Below, piece by piece: positions 973 through 57,611 of a stretch of DNA of 64,000 nucleotides. The DNA is from an uncultured Clostridia bacterium (lineage in GTDB: Bacteria > Bacillota > Clostridia > Oscillospirales > Acutalibacteraceae). The stretch covers positions 3,151-67,150 of the forward strand of contig CALGUK010000049.1 in NCBI GenBank assembly GCA_937920235.1, written 5' to 3'. Within the stretch, counting starts at the first letter, position 1. Every line of letters starts with the position of its first letter. The position numbers and the translations under genes are program-made. Below the pieces are notes generated by a model, which was given only the letters and a program-made list of their open reading frames with translations, ran no database searches and had not been told where the DNA came from.

Positions 973-977
973 TTGAG

Positions 978-2535: not shown

Positions 2536-4758
2536 ATGAATAAAAAACCTACAAAAAAAATGGAAAGCCGATCAATGCAGGCATTTATCATTTTCTGCGC
2601 CGCATTGCTCTTGATAATAGGCAATCTGTTCTGGATCCAGATTGTCAAGGGTGAAGAATACAGACTCAAAGCAGAACGTAATCAGCTCAGTGATACGGTT
2701 ATCGCCGCAAACAGAGGAACGGTTTACGATTCAAATATGAAAGTGCTTGCACAGAGTGCTTCAGCATGGCTTGTTTATATTAATCCTTCAAAAATAAAGA
2801 CCGATGAGCAAAAACAGTTGCTTATTGACGGATTTGTAAAGCTTTTTGAGCTTGATGAAGAAACGGTTACCAAAAAGGTCAATCGCAGTGAAAGCGGTTA
2901 TGAAAAAATAATAGGACAAATCGATAACAGCCAGAAGGAAGAGCTTCAGAACTACATAAAGTCACACAGAGACCAGAAGCTTAATACAATTGTCGGAATA
3001 GACCCCGATACCAAACGCTATTATCCGCTCGGTTCTTTTGCCTCGACCGTAATAGGCTTTACGGGATCTGAGGATATAGGCAGATCGGGACTTGAATTGA
3101 AATATAACGATGCTCTGACGGGTGAGGCAGGCAGAAGAATTACGGCACAGAACGCACTCGCAGGCGATATGCCGAATGACTATGAGACAACTTATGATGC
3201 AGAGCAAGGATACAGCCTTGTGCTGACAATCGACGAGGTAATTCAGTATTATCTTGAACAACAGCTTGCGCAGGCTCTCAATGAAACTCAATCAAAATAT
3301 GCATACGGTATTGTTATGGATGTGAAAACAGGTGCTATTCTCGGTATGTCAACGATGCCCGATTACAACCTTAATGAGCCGTATAAAATCCATTCAGATT
3401 CTGTCATTGAAGAAATTGAGGCCATGGAGGATAAAACCGAAAAAGCACAGGCAGAGACCAATGCACTGTATTCACAGTGGAGGAACAGAACTATTTCCGA
3501 CTCCTATGAGCCCGGATCTGTTTTCAAGCTTTTTGTTGCGGCAGCTGCACTTGAAGAGGGTGCTATCACTCCGGAATCAACATATAATTGCACAAGCTCA
3601 ATTAAGGTTGCCAACTATACACAGCATTGCTTCAATCACAAGGCTCACGGAGTTCAGACAGTTGCAGAAGCATTGCCAAATTCCTGCAATACCTTCTTTA
3701 TTACCGTGGGACAGCGTATGGGCAAGGAAACCTTCTTCAAATACTTTGAAGCATTCGGATTTACCGAGACAACGGGAATTGATCTTCCGTCAGAAGCCGC
3801 ACCTGTTGCAGGCAAAACTTATTATAATATTGATAAAATGGGAATTGCGGAATTGTCCTCTGCCTCTTTCGGCCAGACATTCCAGGCAACACCCATTCAG
3901 ATGATAACAGCCGTAGCATCTCTCGGCAATGGCGGAAAACTTATGAAACCGTATGTTGTAGCCAAGGTTCTCGACGGTAAGGGCAATATAGTGTCAGAGA
4001 CGGAGCCGGTGGTTAAACGACAGGTAATCTCGAAGAAAACGGCAGAAATTATGACAGACCTTATGGAAGAAGTCGTAGTCTGGGGTACCGCAAAGAATGC
4101 TTATGTTGCAGGATATCATATAGCAGGAAAAACAGGTACGAGTGAAAAAATCGGTGCAAATGCGGCAGATCAGAGCATCGCATCCTTTGCAGGCTTTGCG
4201 CCGGCAGATGATCCGCAGATAGCCGTGTTTATAGCGGTTGACGAGCCTCAGTACTATGCAACGGGCGGTTCGGGTGCCGCACCTGTCGCAGGCAGAATAT
4301 TTGAAAATATTCTTGCTTATCTCAATGTTGATCCTCAGTACAGTGATGAAGAGCTTGCACAGGCAACTGTCACTGCACCGAATCTTATCGGTGAAAGTTT
4401 AGATAACGCAAGAGTGAAGGCAAGCGGATTTACCGTAAGGGTTGTCGGTGAGGGCGAAACAGTAGTATCACAAATGCCGTCGTCAAGTCAGTCAATGCCA
4501 AAGGGCGGTGTTATCGTTGTTTACACAGATGAAACCAGCGACAAGCAGACCGCAACAGTACCCGATCTTACTGGACTGACGCTGACTGAAGCCAACAGAG
4601 CGGCCGTCAATTCGGGATTTAATATAAAAATTGCAGGAACAACACAGGGCGCAGGGCAGGTACTCTCCTATAAACAGAGTATCGAAAAGGAAACTGTCGC
4701 CGAGGTCGGTTCGGTAATAACCGTATATTTCCGTTCAAGCGAAAATGTTACGGACTAA
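2536..4758 (+). CDS. class B penicillin-binding protein (FtsI/PBP2B/SpoVD family) with two PASTA domains
   Basis: Transpeptidase motifs SVFK, SCN and KTGT. Two C-terminal PASTA-like repeats (APNLIGESLDNA..., VPDLTGLTLTEA...). N-terminal TM anchor. ATG 2536 chosen; the ORF opens at 2464. Confidence 0.93.
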   Translation: MNKKPTKKMESRSMQAFIIFCAALLLIIGNLFWIQIVKGEEYRLKAERNQLSDTVIAANRGTVYDSNMKVLAQSASAWLVYINPSKIKTDEQKQLLIDGFVKLFELDEETVTKKVNRSESGYEKIIGQIDNSQKEELQNYIKSHRDQKLNTIVGIDPDTKRYYPLGSFASTVIGFTGSEDIGRSGLELKYNDALTGEAGRRITAQNALAGDMPNDYETTYDAEQGYSLVLTIDEVIQYYLEQQLAQALNETQSKYAYGIVMDVKTGAILGMSTMPDYNLNEPYKIHSDSVIEEIEAMEDKTEKAQAETNALYSQWRNRTISDSYEPGSVFKLFVAAAALEEGAITPESTYNCTSSIKVANYTQHCFNHKAHGVQTVAEALPNSCNTFFITVGQRMGKETFFKYFEAFGFTETTGIDLPSEAAPVAGKTYYNIDKMGIAELSSASFGQTFQATPIQMITAVASLGNGGKLMKPYVVAKVLDGKGNIVSETEPVVKRQVISKKTAEIMTDLMEEVVVWGTAKNAYVAGYHIAGKTGTSEKIGANAADQSIASFAGFAPADDPQIAVFIAVDEPQYYATGGSGAAPVAGRIFENILAYLNVDPQYSDEELAQATVTAPNLIGESLDNARVKASGFTVRVVGEGETVVSQMPSSSQSMPKGGVIVVYTDETSDKQTATVPDLTGLTLTEANRAAVNSGFNIKIAGTTQGAGQVLSYKQSIEKETVAEVGSVITVYFRSSENVTD

Positions 4759-42549: not shown

Positions 42550-43017
42550 ATGGCAGAAACATTACTTACAATAGAAGGTCTCAGAGAGCTTGAAGCTGAA
42601 CTTGACGAGTTAAAGGTCAACGGCAGAAAAGAAGCTGCAGAGAAAATCAAAATCGCAAAATCATACGGTGACTTGTCAGAAAACAGTGAATATGACGAGG
42701 CGATGAACGATCAGGCAAAGCTCGAAGCACGTATCAGTGAGATTGAGCATATTCTTAAAACTGCAAAGGTTCTTGATGTTGAATCACTCAGCAATGAAAA
42801 CGTTCACATCGGATCAACGGTTAAACTTACAGATAAAAAGAAAAAGACCTACACATATACAATTGTAGGTTTCGCCCAGGCTGATCCTGCTGTCGGAAAG
42901 ATTTCTGACGAATCACCTGTAGGTAAAGCGCTTATCGGCCATAAAAAAGGCGACAAGGTGACAGTCGAAGTGCCGAGCGGTACTCTTGAATTTAAAATTA
43001 CTGAAATCTCAAGATAA
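42550..43017 (+). CDS. greA: transcription elongation factor GreA
   Basis: The sequence [17 protein letters not shown]...[13 protein letters not shown] is canonical GreA. Confidence 0.96.
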
Positions 43018-43027
43018 GGTGAATAAA

Positions 43028-44521
43028 ATGGCAGATAACATTAAGCAGACTCAGCCCGAGGTTGATATGGGCGAACAGCAAAAAATCCGTCTTGAAAAGC
43101 TCAGAGCCTTGCAGGATGAGGGCAAAGATCCTTTTGTGATTACGAAATATGATCAGACACACCACAGTGCAGATATTAAGGATGACTATGACAACCTTGA
43201 GGGTATAACGGTACGTGTCGCAGGCCGTATGATGTCAAAGAGAGTTATGGGTAAGGCATCGTTCTGCAATATTCAGGACCTTAAAGGCAACATACAGTCT
43301 TATGTTGCACGAGACAGCATCGGTGAAGAAGAATATAAGGGCTTTAAAAAGCTTGATATCGGAGATATTATCGGTATTGAAGGCTATGTTTTCAAGACAA
43401 AGACCGGTGAAATATCAATTCATGCAACAGCGGTTACGCTTCTTTCAAAGAGTCTTCAGATTCTTCCCGAAAAATTTCACGGTCTTACAAATACCGATAT
43501 GAGATATCGTCAGCGCTATATTGACCTTATTATGAATCAGGAGTCCAAGCAGACGCTTATCAATCGTTCAAAAATTATCAGCGCAATCCGTAAGTATCTT
43601 GACGGTGAGGGCTTTATGGAAGTTGAAACTCCTATGCTTGTTTACAATGCGGGAGGAGCCGCGGCAAGACCATTTGAGACACACTTCAATGCTCTTGATA
43701 CCGATATTAAGCTTCGCATATCGCTTGAACTTTACTTAAAGCGTCTTATCGTTGGCGGTATGGAAAAGGTGTATGAAATCGGCAGAGTTTTCCGAAACGA
43801 AGGACTTGATACGCGTCATAATCCGGAATTTACTCTTATGGAGCTTTACCAGGCTTATACAGATTATCACGGTATGATGGATCTTACCGAAAATCTTTAC
43901 CGTTTTGTTGCTCAGGAGGTTCTCGGAACAACAAAAATTACATTCAATGGTATTGAAATGGATCTCGGCAAGCCGTTTGAAAGAATTACAATGCTTGATG
44001 CGGTTAAGAAGTATTCCGGCGTTGATTTTAATGAAATTCATTCAACTGAAGAGGCTCATGCAGTTGCGAAAGAGTATCATGTAGAGTTCGAAAAACATCA
44101 TAAAAAGGGTGACATTCTCAATCTTTTCTTTGAAGAATTTGTTGAAGAACATCTTGTTCAGCCGACCTTTGTTATGGATCATCCGATTGAGATTTCACCG
44201 CTTACAAAGAAAAAGCCTGAAGACCCCGATTATGTTGAACGTTTTGAATTCTTTATGAATGGTTGGGAGATGGCCAACGCATATTCCGAGCTTAACGACC
44301 CCATTGACCAGAGAGAGCGCTTCAAGGCTCAGGAGGAGCTTCTCGCTCTCGGAGATGAGGAGGCTAACACAACAGATGAGGACTTCCTCTATGCACTTGA
44401 ACTCGGTATGCCGCCAACGGGAGGCATCGGATTTGGTATCGACCGTATGACAATGCTGCTTACCGACAGCCAGGCAATCCGTGATGTAATCCTCTTCCCC
44501 ACAATGAAGCCCATCGATTAA
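43028..44521 (+). CDS. lysS: lysine--tRNA ligase (class II)
   Basis: OB anticodon-binding domain plus class II motifs (FRNEG..., [14 protein letters not shown]). Confidence 0.97.
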
Positions 44522-44680: not shown

Positions 44681-44749
44681 TTGCAAAAACGCAGGGAAAA
44701 TCTGCAATTTTGCTATTTACTTGCTATTGAAAACGGGTTATGATAAAAT
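44681..44749 (+). promoter_or_regulatory. activator-type promoter with phased TGCAA repeats upstream of the LytTR operon
   Basis: TGCAA cores at 44682 and 44703 (21-bp phase). CTGCAATTTTGC at 44702-44713 and TATTGAAAACG at 44725-44735. Extended -10 TGATAAAAT at 44741-44749. No good -35 element. Confidence 0.5.
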
Positions 44750-44793
44750 TAAAATAAGATATATTTCTTTTTTAGGCGAATAGGAGCTGTGTT

Positions 44794-45492
44794 ATGAAAA
44801 TACTTATCTGTGATGACGAAGTCAGATATATAAATGACCTGCGCAGGTATATTGAGGAATATATGAAAAACCACGGTATCGCCTGTGAGATTGATACAAC
44901 TACCGTGCCCAATGAAATAACAGATAATAATGTCGTTTATGATTTAGTGTTTCTTGATATAAGAATGCCGAATTTTGACGGAATTGACCTCGCCTATGAG
45001 CTGAAAGAACGAAACAGCAAGGTTGTTATATTTTTTGTTACTGCGTTCAATGAATATCAGGATGCAGCAATGGATTTACAGGTTTTCCGATTCTTTGAGA
45101 AGCCCTTTGATGCAAAACGATTATTTTCCAGTCTTGACAAAGCTATGGAATATATTGACGGCTCATATGTTGAAGTGTTTGTATATAACAATAAGGAACA
45201 CAAGAGAATTCTTGTCGATGATATAGTTTATATTGAAAACAGAAGCAGAAAAACGCATATCTACACACAGAAAAGTGAAATGATTGTCCGTGATTCTATT
45301 GACGAGTGGACAGAAAAATTGCCTACAACCTTCTTTTTCCGTGTTCATAAATCCTTTCTCGTTAACCTTCATTATGTTACAAAGTACAGTTATGAGGAGC
45401 TTTATCTTAACGAAAATATAAGAATCCCTGTTGCCACAAGAAAGCAGGCGGATTTTCATAAGGCCTGGTTCAGATATCTGAAAAGGAGATAG
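44794..45492 (+). CDS. LytTR-family response regulator
   Basis: Receiver domain (LICDDE..., phospho-acceptor context LVFLDIRMP) plus a LytTR DNA-binding domain (FFRVHKSFLVNLHYV). Confidence 0.93.
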   Translation: MKILICDDEVRYINDLRRYIEEYMKNHGIACEIDTTTVPNEITDNNVVYDLVFLDIRMPNFDGIDLAYELKERNSKVVIFFVTAFNEYQDAAMDLQVFRFFEKPFDAKRLFSSLDKAMEYIDGSYVEVFVYNNKEHKRILVDDIVYIENRSRKTHIYTQKSEMIVRDSIDEWTEKLPTTFFFRVHKSFLVNLHYVTKYSYEELYLNENIRIPVATRKQADFHKAWFRYLKRR

Positions 45493-45495: not shown

Positions 45496-46776
45496 ATGTT
45501 TTTAGCTTTTTCATTTGCTTATTTAACAGAGTTTATATCAGCACATATTTTGTTTTCTTCAGCTGCAGAAAAGAAATATAAATCAGGAAAATGCTTTTTA
45601 ATAGGAGCAATTTTATTCGGAATAAGCATAATTATATGTTTTGTTGTCAGAAAGTTTACCTGGATTAATTTGATTATATACCTTATAATTGATATTTTAT
45701 ATGCTTATCTATGCTTTGATATGGGGATAAAAAAATCCATATTATACGGAACAATAGTTACACTTATAGGTGTAATATGGGAGGTGTTTGTTGAAATAAC
45801 GCTGTTATCAGTAACAGGTGCTGATTCCGAAGAATTACTGACAAGTGTGCTCGCTGTATCGATATGTTCTTATATAAGTAAAATGCTTTTGTTTATATCA
45901 GTATTGATTTTGTCAAGATTTGTCGCAAAAAATGATGCAGTAAAACTACCGGTGTCTGTCACTATCTATCCGATTGTGCTGATTATTGTCCTTTTAGCCT
46001 TTTGGGAGGTGTGTGAGAAATGTCAAGTGAACTCAACAGGGCAGCTTGCACTGGCAATTACCGCTGCAGGTCTTATTATTCCGACGGTGCTTTTCTTTTT
46101 GATTTACCAAAGAAATATTGAAAGAGAAAACGAATTGTTCTGTTTGAAAAAAGAAATGGATAAAATTGAAACGGAAAAGAGTTATTACGATATTCTCGAT
46201 AAGCAAAATCAGAACTTAAGAATATATGTCCATGATACTAAAAAACATCTTGCCGCAATAAAAAGTCTGAATACGGATCCGCAAATTGAGAAATATCTCA
46301 ATAAAATAACTGAAAATCTTGCTACATACAGCAAAGTCAGTCGCAGCGGTAATCACTCGTTTGATGTTATCATCAACAGATATGTTACGGAATGTGCAAT
46401 CAAAAAGCTTAACTTTACGTTTGATACAAGACTTAAAAATCTGGAATATATTGAGAATTATGACCTTGTGACCATACTCGGAAATCTGCTTGATAATGCC
46501 CTGGAATCTGCGGAGCAGTCACAAAACCGAGAAATTACTCTTTCAACGGATTGCAGAAACGGTTATGATGTTTTGATTATTACAAACAGTTGTGATATTG
46601 AACCAAAATCTCTGAATAATAAGCTGATTACAACAAAAGCTGACAAAAAGCTCCACGGTATCGGACTTAAAAGTGTTGCAAAAACATTATTAAAGTATAA
46701 CGGAGATTTCGACTGGGATTATGATGAGCAAAATAAAATTTTTACGGCAACCGTTATGATGTCGGAGGTAAAATAA
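45496..46776 (+). CDS. multi-pass sensor histidine kinase (HPK10/AgrC-like, GHKL ATPase)
   Basis: About 6 TM helices, a coiled coil, an H-box YVHDTKKHL, an N-box LGNLLDNALES and a G-box HGIGLKSV. Confidence 0.9.
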   Translation: MFLAFSFAYLTEFISAHILFSSAAEKKYKSGKCFLIGAILFGISIIICFVVRKFTWINLIIYLIIDILYAYLCFDMGIKKSILYGTIVTLIGVIWEVFVEITLLSVTGADSEELLTSVLAVSICSYISKMLLFISVLILSRFVAKNDAVKLPVSVTIYPIVLIIVLLAFWEVCEKCQVNSTGQLALAITAAGLIIPTVLFFLIYQRNIERENELFCLKKEMDKIETEKSYYDILDKQNQNLRIYVHDTKKHLAAIKSLNTDPQIEKYLNKITENLATYSKVSRSGNHSFDVIINRYVTECAIKKLNFTFDTRLKNLEYIENYDLVTILGNLLDNALESAEQSQNREITLSTDCRNGYDVLIITNSCDIEPKSLNNKLITTKADKKLHGIGLKSVAKTLLKYNGDFDWDYDEQNKIFTATVMMSEVK

Positions 46777-46777: not shown

Positions 46778-47626
46778 ATGATTTATATTGTCGGTTTAGC
46801 AACTTCATATTTTGTTGAAGCTCTGTCGTCCTATATATTATTTTCACACGTCGGTGAAAAAAGGTTTAAATCCGTATATTGCTTTCTGATTGGCACAGGT
46901 CTGCATTCCCTCGGCATGTTTATCAATTTGTTGGGCAAGAATAAGATATGGATAAATTTAATTGCCTTTTTGATCATTACCGTTATATTCGGTATGCTTG
47001 CATTTAAAATCAATTTTAATATGGTTTGCTTATACTCTGTATTTATTGTTGCTATTTGTACATTCTGCGAAATGTATATGGAAATGCTCATTACCTCTGT
47101 TACGGATATGCAAATGCAAAGCTATCTGACGAGCGATATGGTAATGGTTGCGTTAGTTATATTCGGTAAAGGGTTTTATTTAATCAGCATACTGCTGATG
47201 TCAAGACTCATAAAACGGGAAAACCGTGTTAAATTACCCTTGGTTATGTTTCTTTACCCCATTTCTGCTTTTTTATCCTTTGCAGTCATCTGGTATGTGT
47301 GCAGATATTGCAATGTCAATTCTTACGGCAAGCTTGTTCTGTCAACAGTTATGATGCTGCTTTTTGCTGTGGTTGTATTTCTGCTTTTTTCTTACCAGAA
47401 AGGTATTGAGAGAGAAAGCAAACTGCTTGAACTCAAAACACAAATTGAAAAATCAGAAACGGAAAAAACATATTACAGCATCATTGAAAAGCAAAATGAT
47501 AATCTTATTTCTTATGCAGACGATACGCAAAAGCATCTTAAAGCAATAAAAATGCTTAATTCCGATCCGCAGATTGATGAATACATCAATAAGATGCTTG
47601 CAAGTCTGGATGAATACGGTAAATAA
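46778..47626 (+). CDS. truncated paralog of the upstream kinase (sensor TM domain + dimerisation helix; no ATPase domain, His replaced by Asp)
   Basis: Collinear similarity to kinase residues 1-~280. The aligned H-box reads YADDTQKHL. The ORF ends right before the position of the N-box and is followed by a terminator. ATG lies 1 nt after the kinase stop. Confidence 0.75.
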   Translation: MIYIVGLATSYFVEALSSYILFSHVGEKRFKSVYCFLIGTGLHSLGMFINLLGKNKIWINLIAFLIITVIFGMLAFKINFNMVCLYSVFIVAICTFCEMYMEMLITSVTDMQMQSYLTSDMVMVALVIFGKGFYLISILLMSRLIKRENRVKLPLVMFLYPISAFLSFAVIWYVCRYCNVNSYGKLVLSTVMMLLFAVVVFLLFSYQKGIERESKLLELKTQIEKSETEKTYYSIIEKQNDNLISYADDTQKHLKAIKMLNSDPQIDEYINKMLASLDEYGK

Positions 47627-47631: not shown

Positions 47632-47667
47632 ACCCTCGTTTCCTTATGGCGACGAGGGTTTTGCTTT
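47632..47667. terminator. bidirectional terminator between the kinase paralog and the XRE gene
   Basis: Hairpin accctcgt / acgagggt, with T-rich runs on both strands. Confidence 0.75.
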
Positions 47668-47863
47668 ATTCAATTATAAATAAATCGCCGGGCAAACAGT
47701 CAAAAATTTTGCACAGCTTTTCTATGGTTTCAAGCTGTAAGCCGGTTAATGTGTTATCGCAGAGCTTGTTGACGGTTTTATATGTCGTCTGCATTTCCTT
47801 TACCAGCCAATATCTTGTTTTACCTTTTTTATCAAGTAAATTCTGAATATTCATTTTAATCAT
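47666..47863 (-). CDS. XRE/Cro-type helix-turn-helix transcriptional regulator
   Basis: 65 aa. The segment KTRYWLVKEMQTTYKTVNKLCDN...LETIEKLCKIFDCLPGDLF is typical of short HTH_26/XRE proteins. AGGTGA RBS. Confidence 0.85.
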   Translation of the reverse strand: MIKMNIQNLLDKKGKTRYWLVKEMQTTYKTVNKLCDNTLTGLQLETIEKLCKIFDCLPGDLFIIE

Positions 47864-47910
47864 AATATATCACCTAATAAATTGTAACATTAGTATATCT
47901 GAAATATAAT

Positions 47911-47939
47911 CAACCAAACGGTAGTGTACCAAGTGGTTG
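47911..47939. promoter_or_regulatory. 29-bp imperfect palindrome (candidate XRE operator)
   Basis: CAACCA-nnn-GGTA-nnn-TACC-nnn-TGGTTG. The right arm overlaps the -35 element of the + strand promoter. Confidence 0.4.
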
Positions 47940-47965
47940 ACTATTTTGCTTTTCTGTGATAATAT
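47937..47965 (+). promoter_or_regulatory. near-consensus sigma-A promoter facing the S8/LRR genes
   Basis: TTGACT, a 17-nt spacer, then TGATAATAT (extended -10). Confidence 0.5.
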
Positions 47966-48050
47966 GTCTTTAGAGGTAAAAGATGCACTTTTTTAAGGAT
48001 TGTCCGGCCGAAAAGTGAGGTGAACTCGTTAAGGAAAAATTTTTATTGTT

Positions 48051-48123
48051 TTCCTGCAATTTTACTTATTTTTTCTGCAGTTTTGCAGGGGATATTTTAT
48101 TGAAAACGATAATTTGATATAAT
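48051..48123 (+). promoter_or_regulatory. activator-type promoter with 21-bp phased CTGCA(A/G)TTTT direct repeats (candidate LytTR site)
   Basis: CTGCAATTTT at 48054-48063 and CTGCAGTTTT at 48075-48084. TATTGAAAACG at 48098-48108. Extended -10 TGATATAAT at 48115-48123. The layout matches 44681-44749. Confidence 0.5.
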
Positions 48124-48166: not shown

Positions 48167-51100
48167 ATGAAGAACAAAGTAAAAAGTCTGATAAGCATCT
48201 TACTTTCTTTGACTATTCTTATGGTTTCTGTTCCTGCTGTTTCACTTTTCTCCTTTGCGGAGGAAATCGAGGCAGGTGACGACCTGGAAGAATTTTCCGA
48301 GGATGTAACAAATCTTATCAGAGATGCCGGGTTAACAACTGATGAAAATGACTTGTATGTGTCCGCGGCTTCCGATACCGATGAAGCCGATACAAGTTAT
48401 GAGTATCAGACGGCAAGACTTATTGTTAAGTCAAAAAAGAAAATCGACAAGCTCAATGCCGTTGCCGTTGCAGACGGCTATGAGGATCTTCACATTTTGC
48501 AGTTTGCAACACCCGAGGATGCTCAGAAGGCTTGCGAATACTATCTTACATTGGATTATGTCGAATACGCTCAGCCCGACGGGATAGTTGAAGCTGCCGA
48601 TTATGAGGTAGTGAATGAAACACAGTCTATTGAAGATATCATTGCAGAGAAACCCGATCTTGAAAAGCCTGCAATTCAGGTAGGTATCAAAGCTCTTAAA
48701 GAATTTCTTGTGTCATCTGGCATTACGTTTACGAGAAAAATTGAGGTCGCCGTTGTTGATACGGGTGTGGAATCCACTCACAGTCTTCTGAAAGATCGTG
48801 TTGAACCTACAGGAAAGAATTTTTCTTCAAACGGAGCTGCAAATTCTTCTGAGGACAATAACGGTCACGGAACTCACGTTGCCGGTATTGTTGCGGTGAA
48901 CTCTCTTTCAAATGTAAAAATCAGACCGTATAAGGTTCTTGACGGTGCAGGAAGAGGAACGGATATTCAGATAGTCCTCGGCGTTGAGGCGGCAATATCC
49001 GACGGCGTTGAGGTTATAAATATGAGCCTCGGAAGAAGAGGAACAAACAGAGCCTTGCACGACTCCGTAAAAAAAGCAGTTGCAAAAAACATTGCCGTTG
49101 TTGTTTCGTCGGGTAATGATTTTGCAAATCTGGACAACATCAAATATTCACCTGCAAGCTTTCCGGAATGTATCACGGTTATCGCTCACGGTGCAAACTG
49201 CACGGGAAATACTTTTTCAAACTACGGTGCAGTATGCGATATAGCGGCACCCGGTGTGAATATTTACAGCTCTTATCTCAGAAATACATACAGAAATATG
49301 ACGGGTACATCAATGGCAGCACCTCTCGTAGCCGCCGCGGTAACTTACGTTATACTCAGCTATCCCGGTATTACTCCGGATGAAATCAGCGAAACCTTAA
49401 AAATGCATGCTATTCCCGAGGCTAATGCCTCATATTCAACCGCAATGTGTCTGTATATGGAGTTCATTACTCGCAGTGTGGATAAATTGTCTGCTCCCAT
49501 ATTCAGCATAGAGAGCAAAGAGTTTGACATTCCGTTCATGCTGACTCTTTCATCGTCCGATGAAAATGTAACGATATACTATACAAGGTCTGAATTCAGT
49601 GAAGGGTATTACGAGAAATATACAGAGCCTATTCCCATCAGAAACAGTACAACTGTCAAGGCTTATGCATATCGAAAGGGTGCAGTGATGAGTGAATTTG
49701 TTTCACATACATATTCCAAGCTGTTCCCCAACGAAGACTCCAAATACGCCATAGATGAAAACGGAACAATTATCGAATATGTAGGACAGGATACCGAACT
49801 TTTTGTTCCCGAGGTAATTCAGGGAATACAGGTAAAGGCTATCGGTGAAGAAGCATTCCGTCAGAATAAAACAGTTGAGTTTATCGTATTACCCGAATCT
49901 GTTAAGATTATCGGTGAAAAGGCCTTTGCCGAGTCCGAAAAGCTCAGACAGGTTCGTGCAACGGGTGTGGAGACGATTGACACATCGGCATTTATGCTTT
50001 GTGAATCACTTGAAAGCATTGAAGGAAATAACATTAAAAACATAGGCTCTTATGCTTTTTACGGCTGTCCAGTACTCAAATATATTGATTTCTCCAAAGC
50101 GGAAAAAATCGAAAGCTGTGCTTTTGAAAGTGCGTTGAGCATTACAAGCGTTGTTTCAGATACATTGAGTGATGTCAGCGGTACGGCATTCAGAGAGTCG
50201 GGAATAAGAATCGTGGATGTTCCGAATATGAAGAAAATTGACGTGTCAACATTTTACGGATGTGAGCTGCTTGAAAAGGTAAATGCTCCTCTTGTTACAG
50301 CAATAAACAACGACGCGTTCAACGGATGCTCGGCTCTTATTGAAATCAACGCGGAAAATCTCGAAAGCGTTGGTCGCTACAGCTTCCTGAATTGCAGTTC
50401 ACTTGAAGAAATCAATTTCCCGAAGCTTAAAGATTTCGGCGGTTTAGGACTTGAAACAAGCGATTGGGGATGCTTCAAAAACTGTGAAAGTCTTAAAAAG
50501 GTCAATTTACCGTCAGCAACCGTTCTCACGGGCTCGACATTTGACGGCTGTTCATCTCTCGAAGAAATTTCCTTGCCTAAGGCTACGGTAATACCGATAA
50601 GTCTTTTCAGAAACTGTACCGCCCTCAAAAAAGCGGATCTGCCGTCGGCTACCGAAATTTATTCACGTGCATTCGACGGTTGCACCAGTTTAAAGGAAAT
50701 CGAATTGCCGTCTGTTAAAACTGTCAGAACAAGTGCATTTTATGGCAATAATATTGAAAGACTTATTCTTCCCGTTGTTGAAACTGTTGCCGATTTGCCA
50801 TCTGGGGCTATGGTTGCAATCGGCTCCAAGGCTCGCACTATAGACAATCCGAATGCTTTCAGCAGCGGCTCGGATATAACAATTTACGGCACTGTTAATA
50901 CAAAGGCTTACGAGTGGGCAGAAACATATAAAATTCCCTTTAAAGAGATAAATCAGAATAATGCGATTCATATGAATCTCCCCCATGAGTTTGATCAGGA
51001 CAGAGAAACAGCACTTGAAGTCGGTGTTATGGGATTTAACCGTACTTATCAGTGGTACGGAAACAGTCGTGCAGACAACACGACGGGTACTGAGATTGAG

Positions 51101-51922
51101 GGCGCTGTTGATAAAACCTTTAATCCCGTAAAATATGACGAGTACCCGTACTATTATTGTGTTGTGACAAGCAAGGATAATTCATATCCTGCCGTTGAAA
51201 TACGAACCGGTGTAGCTAAGAATATACATACACATATAAAGGTGGAAATTCCACGTGTTGAACCGACTTGTGTAACGACCGGTCTCACTGCCGGAACAGA
51301 GTGTTCGCAATGCGGCAGAATTATCACACCGCAGGAAGAAATACAGACAATTCCCCATGAGTACAACGGTGTTGTAACAGCTCCGACCTGTACGGAAGAG
51401 GGTTATACCACATATACATGTAATTGCGGCAGAAACTATATCGACGATTACGTTTCCGCAAAGGGACATACGGTAAGAGAATACGGGAAAGTTCTGGAAG
51501 CCCCGAATTGTACGGAGGAGGGCAGCAAGGACAGTATTGATTATTGTGTTGCCTGTAACTGTGTCCTTGAACGAAAGGTTATAACAATGCCGGCTCTCGG
51601 ACATACTCCCGGTAAAGCAGTTGAAGAGAACCTTGTGACACCCACCTGTGAGGAAACGGGCTCAAAGGATATCGTCATCTGTTGTTCACACTGCAAGGAG
51701 GAAATCAGTCGTGAAACAGTAACTCTGGAAATGCTTGGCCACAGCGATGATGACGGTGACGGCTATTGCGACGGATGCGATAAGCTCCTCGATGTAACGG
51801 TTGAATGTGACCATAGCTGTCACAAGGGCGGTATTTCAGGATTTTTCTGGAAAATCACGCTTTTCTTCAGCAAGCTTTTCGGCACTAACAGAGTTTGCGA
51901 ATGCGGAGTGGCGCATTATTGA
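48167..51922 (+). CDS. secreted S8 subtilisin-like protease fused to BspA-type leucine-rich repeats and a Cys/His-rich C-terminal module
   Basis: Signal peptide and an I9-like propeptide. Catalytic residues D (VAVVDTGV), H (HGTHVAG) and S (GTSMAAP). One chitobiase/Fn3-associated-like domain (VTIYYTRSE...TVKAYAYRKG) and about 18 LRR_5-type repeats. Four CxxC-type mini-repeats and the terminal CHKGGISGFFWKITLFFSKLFG motif. Confidence 0.9.
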   Translation: MKNKVKSLISILLSLTILMVSVPAVSLFSFAEEIEAGDDLEEFSEDVTNLIRDAGLTTDENDLYVSAASDTDEADTSYEYQTARLIVKSKKKIDKLNAVAVADGYEDLHILQFATPEDAQKACEYYLTLDYVEYAQPDGIVEAADYEVVNETQSIEDIIAEKPDLEKPAIQVGIKALKEFLVSSGITFTRKIEVAVVDTGVESTHSLLKDRVEPTGKNFSSNGAANSSEDNNGHGTHVAGIVAVNSLSNVKIRPYKVLDGAGRGTDIQIVLGVEAAISDGVEVINMSLGRRGTNRALHDSVKKAVAKNIAVVVSSGNDFANLDNIKYSPASFPECITVIAHGANCTGNTFSNYGAVCDIAAPGVNIYSSYLRNTYRNMTGTSMAAPLVAAAVTYVILSYPGITPDEISETLKMHAIPEANASYSTAMCLYMEFITRSVDKLSAPIFSIESKEFDIPFMLTLSSSDENVTIYYTRSEFSEGYYEKYTEPIPIRNSTTVKAYAYRKGAVMSEFVSHTYSKLFPNEDSKYAIDENGTIIEYVGQDTELFVPEVIQGIQVKAIGEEAFRQNKTVEFIVLPESVKIIGEKAFAESEKLRQVRATGVETIDTSAFMLCESLESIEGNNIKNIGSYAFYGCPVLKYIDFSKAEKIESCAFESALSITSVVSDTLSDVSGTAFRESGIRIVDVPNMKKIDVSTFYGCELLEKVNAPLVTAINNDAFNGCSALIEINAENLESVGRYSFLNCSSLEEINFPKLKDFGGLGLETSDWGCFKNCESLKKVNLPSATVLTGSTFDGCSSLEEISLPKATVIPISLFRNCTALKKADLPSATEIYSRAFDGCTSLKEIELPSVKTVRTSAFYGNNIERLILPVVETVADLPSGAMVAIGSKARTIDNPNAFSSGSDITIYGTVNTKAYEWAETYKIPFKEINQNNAIHMNLPHEFDQDRETALEVGVMGFNRTYQWYGNSRADNTTGTEIEGAVDKTFNPVKYDEYPYYYCVVTSKDNSYPAVEIRTGVAKNIHTHIKVEIPRVEPTCVTTGLTAGTECSQCGRIITPQEEIQTIPHEYNGVVTAPTCTEEGYTTYTCNCGRNYIDDYVSAKGHTVREYGKVLEAPNCTEEGSKDSIDYCVACNCVLERKVITMPALGHTPGKAVEENLVTPTCEETGSKDIVICCSHCKEEISRETVTLEMLGHSDDDGDGYCDGCDKLLDVTVECDHSCHKGGISGFFWKITLFFSKLFGTNRVCECGVAHY
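51602..51922 (+). repeat. 321-nt 3'-terminal module, paralogous copy 1
   Basis: Gap-free alignment with 57291-57611. 78 of 106 residues are identical by my hand count, and 31 of the last 36. Confidence 0.85.
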
Positions 51923-51971: not shown

Positions 51972-54900
51972 ATGCGGAAAATTCATAAATTTTTATCAGT
52001 TATTCTGACAATTGTGATGACATTATCCGTTACTCCTGTTACTGCAAGTGCTGCAGGAGGTGCTTGCGGAGCGAATTTGAAGTGGAATTATAATACTTCT
52101 ACATATATTCTTACAATCACAGGTACGGGCGACATGGCTAATTACAGCTATACAAATCGTCCTTGGGAAACCTATGAGGATAAAATTAAAGAGGTTGTTA
52201 TTGCAGACGGGGTAACGTCAATAGGTGCATATGCATTTTACAGCTTCGGCAAGGTGACGAGCATTACAATACCTGACAGTGTTACAAAAATCGGTGCTAC
52301 GGCATTTAATGCCTGTAAAGCTCTTGTTAATATAGACCTTCCCGATGGTATTACGGAAATTCCGAACCGTGCATTCACAAATTGCACTGCTCTTGAGAAT
52401 ATTACAATCCCTTCAAATGTTAAAACGATCGGAGCTTCGGCTTTTGAAGGCTGTTCCGCTCTGACCTCGGTTACGATTCCCGACGGTGTAACAACAATTG
52501 AGGCAAAAGCGTTTGCATCCTGTAAGGGACTTACGGGAATTATGATTCCGGCGAGTGTTACATCGATAGATTGTTCGGCTTTTGAAAACTGTGTCGGCTT
52601 TTCCGGTGTGGTTATAGATGAAAAGAACCCGAACTATTCAAGCGACGCTTTCGGTGTGCTTTTCAACAAGGATAAATCAGAGCTTATTGCATATCCTACA
52701 GGAAATACATCAACAAGCTACACGGTTCCCGACAGCGTCAGAACAATAGGAGCAAGTGCTTTTAAGGGACAGATATATCTTACCGATGTTACGGTTGGGG
52801 AACATGTGATAACCATTGAGGATTACGCTTTTTACGGCTGTTCGGCGCTTAAAAATGTGTCGTTTGAGGGCGAGAAAAATGCCCTTGAGGATATCGGTCA
52901 ATATGCGTTTTCCGAATGTGACAGCCTTTCTGCCGTAACACTTCCGAAAAATGTCAGAACGATCCGTACAAATGCGTTTGCAAACAGCGACAACCTTGCA
53001 CAGATTTCACTTCCTGCAGGCTTGAAGGTGCTTGAAAGCGATGCATTTATCGGAACGGCTTTATACAGCGATGAAGAAAACTGGAAAAATGATATACTGT
53101 ATATTGATGGTTGCGTAATAACAGCGAAAACCGAGCTGTCTGATACCGTTCAGTTCGAGGACGGCACAAAACTGATTGCGGATAATGCATTTAACGGCTG
53201 TGTGGGAATTACAAGTGTAATTCTTCCTGAGGGAATAACATCAATCGGAAACAACGCTTTTTCGGGTTGCTCAGGACTGACGGATATAACAATGGCCGTA
53301 ACAATAAACTCCATCGGTGACAGCGCCTTTTCGGGATGTTCATCATTAAAGGAGGTTTACTATTCGGGAACGGCTAAACAGTGGTTTGAGATTTCTATAG
53401 GAGTTCAGAATCAGCCGTTGACATCTGCAGCCTTTCTCACGGGTCCCGGCGGAGAGGCAATTGTTGTTACCGGCGGATATATGGGAGATATCAAATGGTT
53501 CTTTGATGAAGAAAACAATGTCCTGACGCTTTCCGGCAAGGGAAAAACAGACGAGTTTATTTTCGGCGAGCGTCCCTGGGAGATATATGCAGATTTGATT
53601 CAGACAGTTGTTGTCGGAAGCGGCATAACCAATGTCGGCAAAAATGCTTTCAGAAATCTTCCCAAGCTTTCAAATGTAATTCTTCCATATGGTATGATGT
53701 CAATTGAAGAGAATGCTTTTGCAAATTGCAATTTGTTAAACGATATTCTTCTCCCAAAATCCCTGAGATATATCGGAAACAGCTCTTTTTCAAACTGCTC
53801 GTCTCTCGAGGCCATAAACCTTGAACTTATCACCGAGGTAGGTATGATGGCCTTCTCGGGATGCACCTCGCTGAAAGAAGCAAACTTCGGTCCGATTACA
53901 ACACTCGGAAATTCGGCATTTTACGGATGTACAAGCCTGACCGGTGTAACTTTCGGTAAATACCTGGGCTCAATCAAGTATTCAATGTTTGAAGGCTGTG
54001 ACAAGCTTGAGAAAATTACGGTTGACAGTGAAAACGAAACCTATATGAGTGACGAACACGGTGTGTTGTTCAGTAAGGACGGAACAGAGCTTGTTCTGTA
54101 TCCTATGGGCAATGCTGAAAAGACATATTCATTACCTGACAGCGTAATCAGAATCAAGAAGGATTCATTTGACGGAACGAAAAATCTTCTCACATTAAAT
54201 TTTAATAAGAATTTACAAAAAATCGAAGAGAGTGCCTTTGATGCGTGCAGTATTACCGAATTCTGTTATCCCGGTACAATTGAACAATGGGAAGAGAAGG
54301 TAACTGTCGGTACAAATAACAGCAATCTCAGCGGCGAGACTCTTACACTCATGCCATCTGACCTGGAGGCACTTACGGGTAAATGCGGAGATGATGTTTT
54401 CTGGACACTTAATGCATACACGGGTGATATGGTTATCTCGGGTACGGGACCGATGTATGATTATGCTTCAGACGAAGCGCGTCCTTGGGAAAGATACTTA
54501 ACTGCTATAACAAATATCGTGATCGGTGATGGTGTAACATCTGTCGGTACGGATGCATTTTCATACGGTAACAGAATTGAGAGCGTTACAATCGGTAATG
54601 ATGTGAGTGTAATCGGTGATTATGCTTTCTATGAGTGTTCGGCTCTTAAAAAGGTGACATTCGGAGAGAGCGTAACATCAATCGGAAGACATGCATTTTA
54701 TTCTTGTGCAGAGCTTAAAAGTCTCAATCTTCCGGACAGCTTAACAACTATCGGAATTTCCGCTTTCTTTCTCTGTGAGGGTGTTACGGAAATTGCAATA
54801 GGTAAGGGACTTGTCTCTTTCGCGGCAAATACGTTTGCACGGTGCACAAGCCTAGAAAAGATAACGGTTGACAGTGAAAACCCGAATTTTTCAAGCGACA

Positions 54901-57611
54901 GCTTCGGTGTATTGTTTAACAGGGAAAAAACAACTCTTATTAAATATCCTGAGGCAAATTCCTTAACTGTTTATACAATTCCCGATTCCGTAACGACAAT
55001 TGATGCAAACAGCTTCTTATGTGCGGCAAAGCTTACGGAGATTATAATTCCTGACGGAGTTACAACCATCGAAGAGAGTGCTTTCAAGGAGTGCTTCAAC
55101 CTTAAAACCGTTGAAATACCAGCATCTGTAACAACAATTAAGAACCAGGTGTTCAATAATTGCGTTATGCTTGAAAAAATCGTAATTCCGGATGGTATTA
55201 CAACAATCGGTACACAGATGTTTTACTATTGCGGTCAGCTCAAGGAAATTATTATTCCCGAAAGTGTAACATCTGTAGGCAAACAGGCATTTACATCCTG
55301 CTCATCTCTTAAGGATGTTTATTTCAAGGGAACACAGCAGCAATGGTCGGCTATATCCGTAGCAAATAACAATCAACCTCTCATTGATGCAATAAAGCAT
55401 TTTAATTACGGAGACGGTGATTTTTCGTATGTTGTTATTTCCGAAGAGGAAAAAACCGCTAAAATCATAGGCTATAATGTTTCAGGACCGTCGTTGAACG
55501 TTATAATACCGAAAACCATTGATGGCTATACAGTCATAGAGTTTGACGAAACCATATTTAAAAATCTCGATTCGCTTACAAGCGTCAAAATTCCTGACAC
55601 CGTGGTGAAAATAGGAGACGGTGCATTTTATAATTGCGGTAATCTTGCCGATATCAGTATTCCCGAAAGCATCGTATCAATAGGTGAAAATGCCTTTGCT
55701 TTCTGCGACAAGCTCACAACGGTGATGATGGGTAAAGGTGTAGAAACGATCGCGACAGGAGCATTCAACGGATGTAATGCGTTGGCAAATGTTTATTATA
55801 CGGGAACTCAGGAGCAATGGAATTCCATATCCGTTGGTCAGAACAATCAGCCGCTTTTAAATGCCACAGTACATTTTGAATACGGCGAGCTCGACTCTGT
55901 TTCGGGTACCTGGGGTGATAATATCACCTGGACACTTGATTTTTATTCCGGTGTATTAACTTTTTACGGCGACGGAAAAATGAAGCTGAATTCGGGCTCA
56001 TACAACTTCCCGTGGCACAGCTATAAGGGATCGGTAAAAGAGGTTGTTATATCTGACGGAATAACATATATCGCTCCGGGCACATTCTACTATTTTACAA
56101 ATCTTGAGACCGCTACCATTGCGGGAAGTGTCAAAACAATTGAAGGACATACATTTGAATACTGCAACCGGCTTGAAAAGGTAACGCTTTCCGACGGTCT
56201 GGAAAAAATCGGTTTATATGCATTCAGAAACTGTTCAAAACTTGAAAAAATAGTTATTCCGAACAGCGTAACCGTAATCGGAGATTCAGCTTTTGAGAAT
56301 TGCAAGGAGCTTACAAGTGTTAAACTCAGCGAAAACATTACGGAAATAGGCTCATGTGTGTTTTATGAATGTAATAAGCTTAAAGAGATAAACATTCCGG
56401 AGGGTGTAACAATAATCGGTGAAGCAGCATTTTATAGTTGTGCATCTCTGACGGAACTGACAATTCCCGAAAGTGTTACGTCAATTCAAAAGGATGCGTT
56501 TGCATATTGCAAGGGAATTGAAACCGTGACGATGGGCGCAGGAGTAAAGGAAATTCTCAGCAGTGCATTTTATTACTGCATCAGCATAAAGGATGTTTAT
56601 TATTCAGGCTCACAAGCTCAATGGAAAATGATCAGTATAGGTACAAGAAATGAAGACCTCACAGATGCGACTCTTCATTGTCTCGGAGCTGAACATCCGC
56701 ACGAATTTGCAGTTGTTGTAACAGAACCCACTTGTCTTAAACAGGGATATACAACATACATCTGCGAATGCGGATATGAGTATGTTGACGATTATGTTGA
56801 GGCATTGGGACACGATTATATTGAGGTTGTAACAAAGCCTACCTGCACAAAAGAAGGATACACAACATACACTTGTTCAAGATGTGCTGACAGTTATGTT
56901 TCCACCAAACCCATTAACCCGACGGGACATACCTTTGTGTCTGAAATCGTAACAGCTCCGACTCATCTTGCTGAGGGTGTTGAAAAGCTTGTGTGCAGTG
57001 AATGCGGTTATTCCAATACAAAACCCATTGAAAAATTACCCGAGCACACTTATGAAGCAACGGTTACGGTACCGACCTGCACCGAGCAGGGCTATACGAC
57101 ATTTACCTGTGCCTGCGGAGATACCTATGTCGGTGACTATGTTCCTATGAACGGACACACGGTTGAAAAATTCGAGAGCATAATTTCGGAACCCGGCTGT
57201 ACGGACGACGGAATCAAAGAGATTGTGTCCGTATGTACCGTTTGTAACATGGGATTGGGTACGGAAATTATCGTAACTCAGGCACACGGTCATACTGCCG
57301 CGGATGCGGTTGAAGAAAACTGTGTTGCACCTACCTGCGAATGTGCAGGCAGCAAGGATGTTGTAGTATATTGCAGTCTTTGTGACAGTGAGATAAGCCG
57401 TGAGACAGTTACTATTGAAGCAACGGGCCACGCAGATAACGACGGTGACGGATACTGCGATATGTGTAATGAACTTCTTGACCCGACGGTTGAATGTAAC
57501 CACGGCTGTCATAAGGGCGGCATATCGGGATTTTTCTGGAAAATCACACTTTTCTTCAGTAAACTTTTCGGAACAAACAAAGTATGCGATTGCGGTGCTC
57601 TGCATTATTGA
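51972..57611 (+). CDS. giant secreted BspA-type leucine-rich repeat protein with the same Cys/His-rich C-terminal module
   Basis: ATG 51972 lies 9 nt after a GGAG RBS. The ORF opens at 51801, but that part overlaps the upstream gene. Signal peptide VTPVTASA-AG, five LRR super-repeats, six Cys-rich mini-repeats and the terminal motif. Confidence 0.88.
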   Translation: MRKIHKFLSVILTIVMTLSVTPVTASAAGGACGANLKWNYNTSTYILTITGTGDMANYSYTNRPWETYEDKIKEVVIADGVTSIGAYAFYSFGKVTSITIPDSVTKIGATAFNACKALVNIDLPDGITEIPNRAFTNCTALENITIPSNVKTIGASAFEGCSALTSVTIPDGVTTIEAKAFASCKGLTGIMIPASVTSIDCSAFENCVGFSGVVIDEKNPNYSSDAFGVLFNKDKSELIAYPTGNTSTSYTVPDSVRTIGASAFKGQIYLTDVTVGEHVITIEDYAFYGCSALKNVSFEGEKNALEDIGQYAFSECDSLSAVTLPKNVRTIRTNAFANSDNLAQISLPAGLKVLESDAFIGTALYSDEENWKNDILYIDGCVITAKTELSDTVQFEDGTKLIADNAFNGCVGITSVILPEGITSIGNNAFSGCSGLTDITMAVTINSIGDSAFSGCSSLKEVYYSGTAKQWFEISIGVQNQPLTSAAFLTGPGGEAIVVTGGYMGDIKWFFDEENNVLTLSGKGKTDEFIFGERPWEIYADLIQTVVVGSGITNVGKNAFRNLPKLSNVILPYGMMSIEENAFANCNLLNDILLPKSLRYIGNSSFSNCSSLEAINLELITEVGMMAFSGCTSLKEANFGPITTLGNSAFYGCTSLTGVTFGKYLGSIKYSMFEGCDKLEKITVDSENETYMSDEHGVLFSKDGTELVLYPMGNAEKTYSLPDSVIRIKKDSFDGTKNLLTLNFNKNLQKIEESAFDACSITEFCYPGTIEQWEEKVTVGTNNSNLSGETLTLMPSDLEALTGKCGDDVFWTLNAYTGDMVISGTGPMYDYASDEARPWERYLTAITNIVIGDGVTSVGTDAFSYGNRIESVTIGNDVSVIGDYAFYECSALKKVTFGESVTSIGRHAFYSCAELKSLNLPDSLTTIGISAFFLCEGVTEIAIGKGLVSFAANTFARCTSLEKITVDSENPNFSSDSFGVLFNREKTTLIKYPEANSLTVYTIPDSVTTIDANSFLCAAKLTEIIIPDGVTTIEESAFKECFNLKTVEIPASVTTIKNQVFNNCVMLEKIVIPDGITTIGTQMFYYCGQLKEIIIPESVTSVGKQAFTSCSSLKDVYFKGTQQQWSAISVANNNQPLIDAIKHFNYGDGDFSYVVISEEEKTAKIIGYNVSGPSLNVIIPKTIDGYTVIEFDETIFKNLDSLTSVKIPDTVVKIGDGAFYNCGNLADISIPESIVSIGENAFAFCDKLTTVMMGKGVETIATGAFNGCNALANVYYTGTQEQWNSISVGQNNQPLLNATVHFEYGELDSVSGTWGDNITWTLDFYSGVLTFYGDGKMKLNSGSYNFPWHSYKGSVKEVVISDGITYIAPGTFYYFTNLETATIAGSVKTIEGHTFEYCNRLEKVTLSDGLEKIGLYAFRNCSKLEKIVIPNSVTVIGDSAFENCKELTSVKLSENITEIGSCVFYECNKLKEINIPEGVTIIGEAAFYSCASLTELTIPESVTSIQKDAFAYCKGIETVTMGAGVKEILSSAFYYCISIKDVYYSGSQAQWKMISIGTRNEDLTDATLHCLGAEHPHEFAVVVTEPTCLKQGYTTYICECGYEYVDDYVEALGHDYIEVVTKPTCTKEGYTTYTCSRCADSYVSTKPINPTGHTFVSEIVTAPTHLAEGVEKLVCSECGYSNTKPIEKLPEHTYEATVTVPTCTEQGYTTFTCACGDTYVGDYVPMNGHTVEKFESIISEPGCTDDGIKEIVSVCTVCNMGLGTEIIVTQAHGHTAADAVEENCVAPTCECAGSKDVVVYCSLCDSEISRETVTIEATGHADNDGDGYCDMCNELLDPTVECNHGCHKGGISGFFWKITLFFSKLFGTNKVCDCGALHY
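57291..57611 (+). repeat. 321-nt 3'-terminal module, paralogous copy 2
   Basis: Gap-free alignment with 51602-51922. Confidence 0.85.

Follow-up and report, generated by a model that had tools for sequence, protein, structure and literature searches.

Paired direct-repeat boxes mark a putative LytTR-dependent promoter class ahead of a two-component operon and a giant surface-protein operon in uncultured Oscillospirales

Results and Discussion

Genes and Promoters of the Locus

We analyzed a 64-kb stretch of DNA (64,000 nucleotides, hereafter the window; G+C content 40.8%) from an uncultured Clostridia bacterium of the family Acutalibacteraceae, in which a two-component system with a LytTR-family response regulator is followed by genes for a secreted S8 protease with leucine-rich repeats (LRRs) and a giant LRR surface protein. 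An earlier note on this DNA had proposed that the promoter upstream of the S8/LRR gene (P_S8) duplicates the layout of the promoter upstream of the response regulator gene (P_RR), and that the regulator acts on both. The nearest relatives in a genome scan were Candidatus Fimenecus, Acutalibacteraceae, and other Oscillospirales metagenome-assembled genomes (MAGs). The genes concerned, with their Pfam assignments, are the following:

42986–44521: lysS, with a strong terminator behind it (−22.8 kcal/mol by folding)
44794–45492, plus strand: LytTR-family response regulator of 232 aa (Response_reg and LytTR, 5e-20)
45496–46776, plus strand: membrane histidine kinase of 426 aa (HATPase_c_5, GHKL)
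46778–47626, plus strand: truncated kinase paralog of 282 aa, without Pfam match, consisting of the sensor and dimerization region only
47666–47863, minus strand: small Cro/C1-type helix-turn-helix (HTH) protein of 65 aa (HTH_26), divergent from the S8 operon
48167–51922, plus strand: secreted S8 protease of 1,251 aa with CHB_HEX_C_1/Fn3_assoc and LRR_5 (BspA-type) domains
51972–57611, plus strand: giant LRR_5 surface protein of 1,879 aa, its likely start at 51972 having a GGAG ribosome-binding site

The Pfam matches identify a LytTR-domain response regulator and an adjoining HATPase_c_5 kinase. Both promoters contain two copies of a 12-bp repeat unit of the TGCA-N4-TGCA type, the starts of which are 21 bp, or two helical turns, apart; we call such a pair a box. 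In both promoters, the units cover about −75 to −41 and closely precede the −35 position. The promoter elements are as follows:

44682–44693, plus strand: distal box unit of P_RR, TGCAAAAACGCA, of the A-tract type; orthologs show TGCAAAAATGCA at the same position
44703–44714, plus strand: proximal box unit of P_RR, TGCAATTTTGCT, 21 bp after the distal start and 41 nt before the −10 hexamer
44721–44726, plus strand: −35-like hexamer TTGCTA of P_RR (register A), 17 nt from the −10; TTGCTA or TTGATA stands exactly 17 nt ahead of the TG-extended −10 in all orthologous regulator promoters
44725–44735, plus strand: 11-mer TATTGAAAACG of P_RR, which holds TTGAAA at 44727–44732
44727–44755, plus strand: second register of P_RR (register B), TTGAAA-17-TAAAAT, with the −10 TAAAAT at 44750–44755 and a promoter score of 10/12
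44741–44749, plus strand: TG-extended −10 of P_RR, TGATAAAAT, with the hexamer at 44744–44749; orthologs have TGATAGAAT or TGATAAAAT
48055–48066, plus strand: distal box unit of P_S8, TGCAATTTTACT
48076–48087, plus strand: proximal box unit of P_S8, TGCAGTTTTGCA, 21 bp after the distal start and 42 nt before the −10 hexamer
48098–48108, plus strand: 11-mer TATTGAAAACG of P_S8, with the same 22-nt offset to the proximal unit as that of P_RR
48115–48123, plus strand: TG-extended consensus −10 of P_S8, TGATATAAT, with the hexamer at 48118–48123

Transcription is predicted to start at ~44756 (register A) and/or ~44762 (register B) at P_RR and at ~48130 at P_S8. The earlier note had described the two regions by somewhat different strings, all of which are in place: CTGCAATTTT at 48054–48063, CTGCAGTTTT at 48075–48084, TATTGAAAACG at 48098–48108, and TGATATAAT at 48115–48123 for P_S8, and TGCAA at 44682 and 44703, CTGCAATTTTGC at 44702–44713, TATTGAAAACG at 44725–44735, and TGATAAAAT at 44741–44749 for P_RR. 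It was also right that the repeats are 21 bp apart at both promoters, that the 12-mer starts 23 nt ahead of the 11-mer at both, and that 5 nt (P_RR) or 6 nt (P_S8) separate the end of the 11-mer from the TG. Its account of the repeats is correct in their phasing but needs revision in the unit, which is ~12 bp long (TGCA-N4-TGCA) and, in the distal position of regulator promoters, carries an A-tract and not a T-tract. Its statement that a −35 element at 17-nt spacing is missing applies to P_S8, where TTTTAT occupies that place and no usable −35 is found, but fails for P_RR, where the conserved TTGCTA stands. Finally, the extended −10 that it described is present in both window promoters and typical of regulator promoters, but it is not typical of the target promoters of other species.

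P_S8 itself is likely to depend on its −10, a perfect TG-extended one. In P_RR, the two overlapping registers are 6 nt apart and each is conserved, relatives having TTGCTA-17-TG-TAGAAT and TTGAAn-17-TATATT; such overlapping registers of regulator promoters may represent one activated and one basal promoter. Alignment of P_RR with P_S8 gives four conserved blocks at the same spacing except for a 1-nt indel: TTGTTTTCyTGCAA (13/14 identical), TCTGCArTTTTGC (12/13), TATTGAAAACG (11/11), and TGATAwAAT (8/9). While the identity of the blocks is given as 92–100%, the spacers between them match at just 3/24 positions, below random expectation. The stop codon of the S8 gene and the start of the LRR giant are separated by 49 nt, and because of this short gap and the absence of a box within it, the two genes are probably cotranscribed.

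Enrichment over Shuffled Sequence

The matrix scans covered both strands of the window (~128,000 positions), used matrices trained without window sequences, and were compared with 100 block-shuffled windows. The window holds 6 copies of the motif CTGCARTTTT, where 0.78 would be expected, a count reached in 0/100 shuffles; three further copies outside the boxes are single and located within coding sequence. With a matrix made of 11 target-promoter boxes from other genomes, P_S8 was the top site of the window (34.0 bits) and P_RR the second (22.5 bits), whereas the best scores of the shuffled windows averaged 10.2 and did not exceed 19.2. With a matrix of 10 orthologous regulator promoters, P_RR scored 49.3 bits and was followed by the P_S8 site, with 20.0 bits on the reverse strand; the shuffle maximum was 16.2 bits. 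A relaxed-pattern match at 29433 and a 15.5-bit match at 46968, inside the gene of the truncated kinase (pseudo-kinase), fell within the shuffle range and were discarded as noise.

Boxes in Related Genomes

The region upstream of the regulator is strongly conserved in orthologous loci (labeled L001 etc.) and reads CTTGCAAAAATGCAGGAAAAATCTGCAATTTTGCAATTTnCTTGCTATTGAAnnnnnnTTTTGATAGAATTATATTGAG. An A-tract marks the distal unit of these promoters (TGCAAAAATGCA) and a T-tract the proximal one (TGCAATTTTGCA), making the box quasi-palindromic. The box lies 116–118 nt before the regulator ATG in 20/21 loci with at least 70% regulator identity, and 114 nt before it in the window, and the 21-bp period is shared by both window promoters and all orthologous boxes. 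Among loci with 50–55% regulator identity, 20/96 have a box scoring at least 15 bits. The box thus co-occurs with the regulator gene across species and tracks it down to ~50% identity. Loci at the far end of this range (L040, L048, L052, L054, and L056, from Oscillospiraceae and Lachnospiraceae, with regulators 51–55% identical) have TTGCAAAAATGCAAG-N-TGCAAAAATGC boxes before their own genes, and the TGCA-N4-TGCA box therefore marks a large LytTR subfamily.

In ~15 loci, we found a second box directly upstream of a neighboring large secreted-protein gene (L001, L007–L010, L012–L014, L016, L080 [twice], L081–L083, L011 [twice], and L168). The consensus of these target boxes is TTTTCTTGCAAwwTnACCGyTTTTTTCnGCAGTTTTGCA, and the proteins encoded downstream of them are, according to Pfam:

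L001, L007–L010, L013, L080–L082: giant LRR_5 proteins
L016: a protein with S8, CHB_HEX_C_1, and LRR_5 domains, the architecture found in the window
L012: a GLUG protein
L014: an RHS and CBM protein
L080: a beta-helix protein

Conservation, spacing, orientation, and gene association of the boxes are direct observations. Read toward the downstream gene, every box has a TAnnnT hexamer 41–42 nt after the proximal TGCA and then an open reading frame (ORF), whereas for the matches of these boxes on the reverse strand both a −10 at the conserved spacing and an ORF are missing. The distance from the proximal unit to the −10 is 41–42 nt in both window promoters (41 in P_RR and 42 in P_S8) and in ~30 promoters of relatives, so that the repeats directly precede the −35 position and keep a constant distance to the −10; the outliers are 3–4 promoters with 47 nt, namely the regulator promoters of L014 and L083 and the second box of L165. 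Within the clade of L014 and L083, the unit variant TTTGACA is present in regulator and target promoters alike. A comparison of box similarity within and between genomes has a permutation P of 0.04, which gives modest support to a single, lineage-specific reader of both.

A search with the full-length S8 protein recovered orthologs of 73%, 67%, and 56% identity that a search with the N-terminal 520 aa had missed. The closest of them lies in L168, a syntenic ortholog of the locus with the gene order of the window. Its genes compare with those of the window as follows:

Regulator: 82% identity
Kinase: 67% identity
Truncated kinase: 39% identity
HTH_26 protein (minus strand): 89% identity
S8 protein: 73% identity
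LRR protein: 1,879 aa, equal in length to that of the window

L168 has a regulator-type box of 57.5 bits and, upstream of the S8 gene, a target-type box of 41.4 bits. Taken together, the fixed-distance boxes, the target boxes including that of L168, and the published layouts of LytTR promoters support the claim of the earlier note that the adjacent regulator controls both its own operon and the S8/LRR operon. The predicted regulon has two operons, that of the regulator itself and the neighboring one for giant surface proteins, and recurs in more than 20 uncultured species of the Oscillospirales.

The Shared 11-mer

The earlier note had also treated the 11-mer TATTGAAAACG as a shared element. 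It is identical at 11/11 positions in the two window promoters, but elsewhere just TATTGAA recurs: only TATTGA(A) is conserved in the regulator promoters, and this core is absent from the target promoters of other species. In the S8 promoter of L168, its counterpart TATTGAATTCG is identical at 8/11 positions and is 5 nt closer to the box, with TTGAAT exactly 17 nt ahead of a TACAAT hexamer that stands at the canonical 42-nt offset. The conserved core of the 11-mer is thus best read as a −35-like hexamer (TTGAAA/TTGAAT). In P_S8, the distance between TTGAAA and the −10 is just 12 nt, so that the hexamer cannot act as the −35 of that −10. As the core is limited to TATTGA(A), missing from the targets of other species, and shifted in L168, we rejected the 11-mer as a conserved regulator site, and we found by eye no conserved −10 partner in both promoters that would make it an element of the extracytoplasmic function (ECF) or sigma-H type. 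The third exact copy of the 11-mer, at 60283, belongs to a MerR-type coding sequence (YIENEL).

The 11-mer of P_S8 also overlaps one arm of an inverted repeat: TTATTGTTTTC (48043–48053) and GAAAACGATAA (48102–48112) bracket the P_S8 box with 10/11 complementarity. This is not a conserved feature, as the match is 10/11 in P_S8 alone, 7/11 in P_RR, and 1–8/11 in relatives.

Alternative Explanations

That both promoters belong to one conserved class dependent on the adjacent LytTR regulator (44794–45492) is, judged by their sequences, highly probable. The regulator might instead bind the P_S8 box and repress, or roadblock transcripts that arrive from a sigma-70-like promoter with TG (TTGACT-17-TAATAT; 47937–47965, plus strand), which lies 116 nt upstream of the P_S8 box and points in the same direction, toward the S8 operon; the perfect TG-extended −10 of P_S8 might also fire without an activator. 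We consider this unlikely, as the box, which covers about −75 to −41 and precedes the −35, occupies the activation position of AgrA, VirR, and LytTR systems, and the 41–42 nt spacing is kept in ~30 promoters, most of them with a weak −35 and no TG, as expected for polymerase recruitment and not for a roadblock. Somewhat less likely again is that the boxes are read by another protein, HTH_26 or some other HTH dimer, their link to the LytTR regulator being merely positional. TGCA is palindromic, the regulator-type boxes score on both strands, and an HTH gene is found between the kinase genes and the S8 or giant gene in the window, L168, and L165. However, most box loci have no HTH gene there (L007–L013 and L016), the HTH proteins of the window and L165 are unrelated, the box follows the regulator gene to ~50% identity, and direct 21-bp phasing upstream of the −35 is the LytTR signature, while a separate palindrome at 47903–47947 offers a better candidate for the HTH_26 operator. 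A reverse-oriented box serving the HTH gene was rejected too, since that strand has neither a −10 nor an ORF at the conserved spacing, in the window or in any locus.

The resemblance of the promoters could also reflect ancestry and no common regulation, P_S8 being a local duplicate or gene-conversion copy of P_RR. The sensor region of the kinase is duplicated in the same locus, and the P_S8 core (TATTGAAAACG and the TG-extended −10) is nearer to the regulator-type cores than the targets of other species are; but the contrast between spacers and blocks described above does not fit a recent neutral copy, the P_S8 box belongs by its matrix scores to the target class and not to the regulator class, and the syntenic S8 promoter of L168, where the S8 protein is 73% identical, has retained the box, so we regard this explanation as very unlikely. 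A terminator or attenuator acting on transcripts from the upstream promoter is an even more improbable role for the proximal unit of P_S8. A terminator scan does mark 48071–48092, and the hairpin (CUGCA-GUUU-UGCAG, then a U-rich tract) folds with −8.7 kcal/mol (z = −3.1). Yet it is weak in comparison with the genuine lysS terminator, its tail UAUUUUAUUG is interrupted, and Rfam gives one insignificant miRNA match; a hairpin is the automatic consequence of two palindromic TGCA tetramers, and its stem is not kept in other target boxes, which have CGGCAG and CTTGCA variants. The probability of a chance match is close to nil: short T/A-rich words are common in AT-rich intergenic DNA such as this, but the comparison of motif counts and matrix scores with the shuffles and the conservation of the box in more than 20 species refute that reading.

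Several observations nevertheless weigh against dependence of the two promoters on one regulator. The model leaves the exact 11/11 identity of the 11-mer unaccounted for, an identity that is real, lineage specific, placed at a 22-nt offset, and surrounded by saturated spacers. With the regulator-promoter matrix, the forward strand of P_S8 scores just 1.4 bits, its distal unit having a T-tract and not an A-tract, and it fits the target class and not P_RR. The variation that regulator and target boxes of one genome have in common is weak (permutation P = 0.04). S8 orthologs located away from the two-component system have either no box (L171–173, 56% identity) or a degenerate one (L169/170, 67%), and neither a box nor a nearby two-component system was found for L171–173 or for the distant S8 homologs of L166 and L167 (36–38% identity); the box therefore belongs to the two-component cassette and not to the S8 gene. 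In L165, a hairpin, an inserted HTH gene, and another sigma-70 promoter with operators of its own come between a good box and the giant gene, and presence of a box therefore does not always mean direct control. Genome, metagenome, and protein searches found no regulator between the window itself (100%) and 82–83% identity, which makes fine-scale comparative footprinting of this species' promoters impossible. Finally, a search of solved structures found no close characterized or structurally solved LytTR relative of the regulator, and its matches in NCBIfam are weak, at the level of BtsR/LytR and far below curated cutoffs.

Relation to Known LytTR Systems

The layout described here has close counterparts among published promoters. 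The repeats of AgrA are 12–13 bp apart and upstream of the −35 (PMC5600425), and LytTR systems have been described in which 9-bp repeats are separated by a 12-bp gap and the −35 follows after 4–11 bp; an extended −10 and positive autoregulation are frequent among them (PMC6193735). VirR boxes consist of two imperfect direct repeats on one helical face, at a fixed position immediately upstream of the −35 (PMC2838878); a review gives their motif as CCAnTT-N15-CCAGTT-N3-Cac and lists pfoA as a secreted VirR target (PMC4963840). P_S8 reads GCAATT-N15-GCAGTT-N3-CAG, which has the VirR spacing and 5/5 + 5/6 + 2/3 = 12/14 of the bases, with the leading C replaced. The locus has in common with VirS/VirR of Clostridium perfringens a LytTR regulator with a membrane kinase, phased direct repeats upstream of the −35, and secreted-protein targets, another VirR target being the ccp protease. 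Where VirR boxes have an invariant C at the head of each half-motif, G or T is found here, and the box is VirR-like and not literally a VirR box. The two systems also differ in that the targets here are giant LRR_5/BspA-type surface proteins and those of VirR toxins or a regulatory RNA, in that a box is also present before the regulator operon (predicted autoregulation), and in the organism, here an uncultured Oscillospirales commensal; the likeness is one of box and gene context.

Staphylococcus aureus AgrA (P2/P3) likewise has paired imperfect direct repeats upstream of the −35 and combines autoregulation with an effector promoter, and AgrB is part of the circuit in the relatives L011, L014, and L083. 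The boxes here do not follow the AgrA consensus [TA][AC][CA]GTTN[AG][TG], however: the best unit, GCAGTTTTG, matches at 7/9 positions, and the regulator-promoter units TGCAAAAAC and TGCAATTTT are without GTT. Unlike the Agr system, this one has no RNAIII-like effector, a protein operon as its output, and no agrBD in the window, and the regulator fails to reach AgrA in a sequence search of solved structures. FsrA of Enterococcus faecalis is an Agr-type LytTR regulator that autoregulates the fsr genes via paired repeats and has as its main direct output the adjacent secreted-protease operon gelE-sprE. It differs in its repeat sequence, and the predicted target in the window comprises an LRR-fused S8 protease and the LRR protein of 1,879 aa. 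Compared with HdrRM/BrsRM and ComE/BlpR/PlnC, the repeats, if read as the 9-bp TGCAATTTT, are similarly 12 bp apart and 9 bp from the −35 of P_RR, a canonical LytTR arrangement (PMC5600425; PMC6193735); those systems differ in pairing the regulator with a membrane inhibitor or in having bacteriocin or competence targets, and their repeat consensus, ACCnCTTAn, is unrelated to the box found here. By this comparison, P_RR and P_S8 join the direct-repeat promoters already known from LytTR systems of the Agr/VirSR type, and their box is VirR-like. In the literature, our searches turned up neither this regulon nor any LytTR control of proteins of the BspA type.

In three relatives, a divergent agrB gene (PF04647, E ~ 1e-38) adjoins the two-component system upstream of the regulator (L011, 1896–2720; L014, 6554–7382; and L083, 386–1153), and a separate box, its −10 at 42 nt, faces each of these genes. 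In contrast, agrB is absent at the locus in the nearest relatives of the window (L001–L010 and L160–L168), and tblastn searches with three AgrB proteins of relatives gave no match in the 64-kb window, which differs in this respect from an Agr-type locus. The receptor of the loci without agrB may be orphan or eavesdropping. The VirS/VirR two-component system, too, can be encoded apart from the agrBD whose peptide it senses (PMC7492741).

A Model of Regulation

That the regulator binds the boxes, in which direction it acts, and what kind of signal it receives is inferred here. The membrane kinase (45496–46776) would phosphorylate the regulator, and a regulator dimer on the two units, which lie on one face of the helix, would recruit RNA polymerase. 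At P_RR, this would give positive autoregulation of the operon of regulator, kinase, and pseudo-kinase, basal expression of which may come from the moderate −35 and the second, overlapping register. At P_S8, which has its perfect TG-extended −10 and no usable −35, it would switch on the operon of the S8 protease/LRR protein and the 1,879-aa BspA-type LRR protein. With no agrBD in the window, the signal peptide would come from elsewhere in the genome or from other cells.

Autoregulation by a LytTR regulator that acts on phased direct repeats is, as a mechanism, already textbook. What is gained is a putative operator of defined sequence, a set of predicted transcription starts, and an output that is conserved, namely BspA-like LRR giants and a surface S8 protease, likely adhesion or host- or matrix-interaction factors, at a time when almost nothing is known of the targets of peptide quorum sensing in uncultured gut commensal Clostridia. 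The VirR-box architecture is thereby extended well beyond C. perfringens, and the weight matrix is usable for regulon prediction in hundreds of Oscillospirales MAGs.

Neighboring Genes and Additional Cassettes

The 282-aa ORF has 40% identity to the N-terminal sensor and dimerization part of the kinase, lacks the ATPase domain, and has the phospho-acceptor His replaced by Asp (YVHD → YADD). The replacement is found in 7/7 orthologs, which have YADD/N/E in place of YAHD, the same truncation point, and lengths of 282–287 aa. The ORF evolves fast, the window and L168 copies being 39% identical in comparison with 67% for the kinase, but on these features it looks like a conserved pseudo-kinase and not a decaying gene. 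The HTH_26 protein, on the other hand, is conserved between the window and L168 (89%) above the level of the regulator (82%). Between it and P_S8 lies an imperfect 21-nt palindrome (47903–47947) that spans the divergent promoters and is partly kept in L168; we infer it to be a candidate operator of the HTH_26 protein, which may subject the S8 operon to a second level of control.

A broader picture that would accommodate these genes is tentative and, in our judgment, rather doubtful. Regulator, kinase, and box would form a portable quorum-sensing cassette of gut Oscillospirales (Ca. Fimenecus and relatives) that puts the giant gene downstream of it, whether for a BspA-type LRR, S8/LRR, GLUG, or RHS protein, under density-dependent control. 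The agrBD genes would have been lost here and the peptide would come from elsewhere, the receptor paralog without His and ATPase domain would tune the response as a decoy or coreceptor, and the HTH_26 repressor with its own operator would form the second layer.

Some related genomes carry more than one cassette. L165 (9990–10560) and L168 share the contig JAZMFZ010000049.1, which thus has two cassettes in tandem; the second consists of a box, a hairpin, a minus-strand HTH_3-type gene, a TTGACA-17-TATCAT promoter flanked by ACATCYAAAATGTGTA repeats, and a giant LRR gene. An element similar to these repeats, ACATCTAAAATGTG, is found in the leader of the giant gene of L010. Upstream of its main cassette, L080 has the end of a second kinase gene, a TTTGACA-type box (33.2 bits), and a gene for a secreted beta-helix protein of 893 aa (1–3940), and paralogous cassettes with distinct box variants can therefore share one genome.

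Within the window, the two LRR proteins share a near-identical C-terminal segment of ~40 aa (CHKGGISGFFWKITLFFSKLFG; encoded at 51798–51922 and 57487–57611), probably a membrane anchor or sorting signal. The region 47864–48052, between the HTH_26 gene and P_S8, contains an 11-codon ORF with a ribosome-binding site (MHFFKDCPAEK, 47994–48029).

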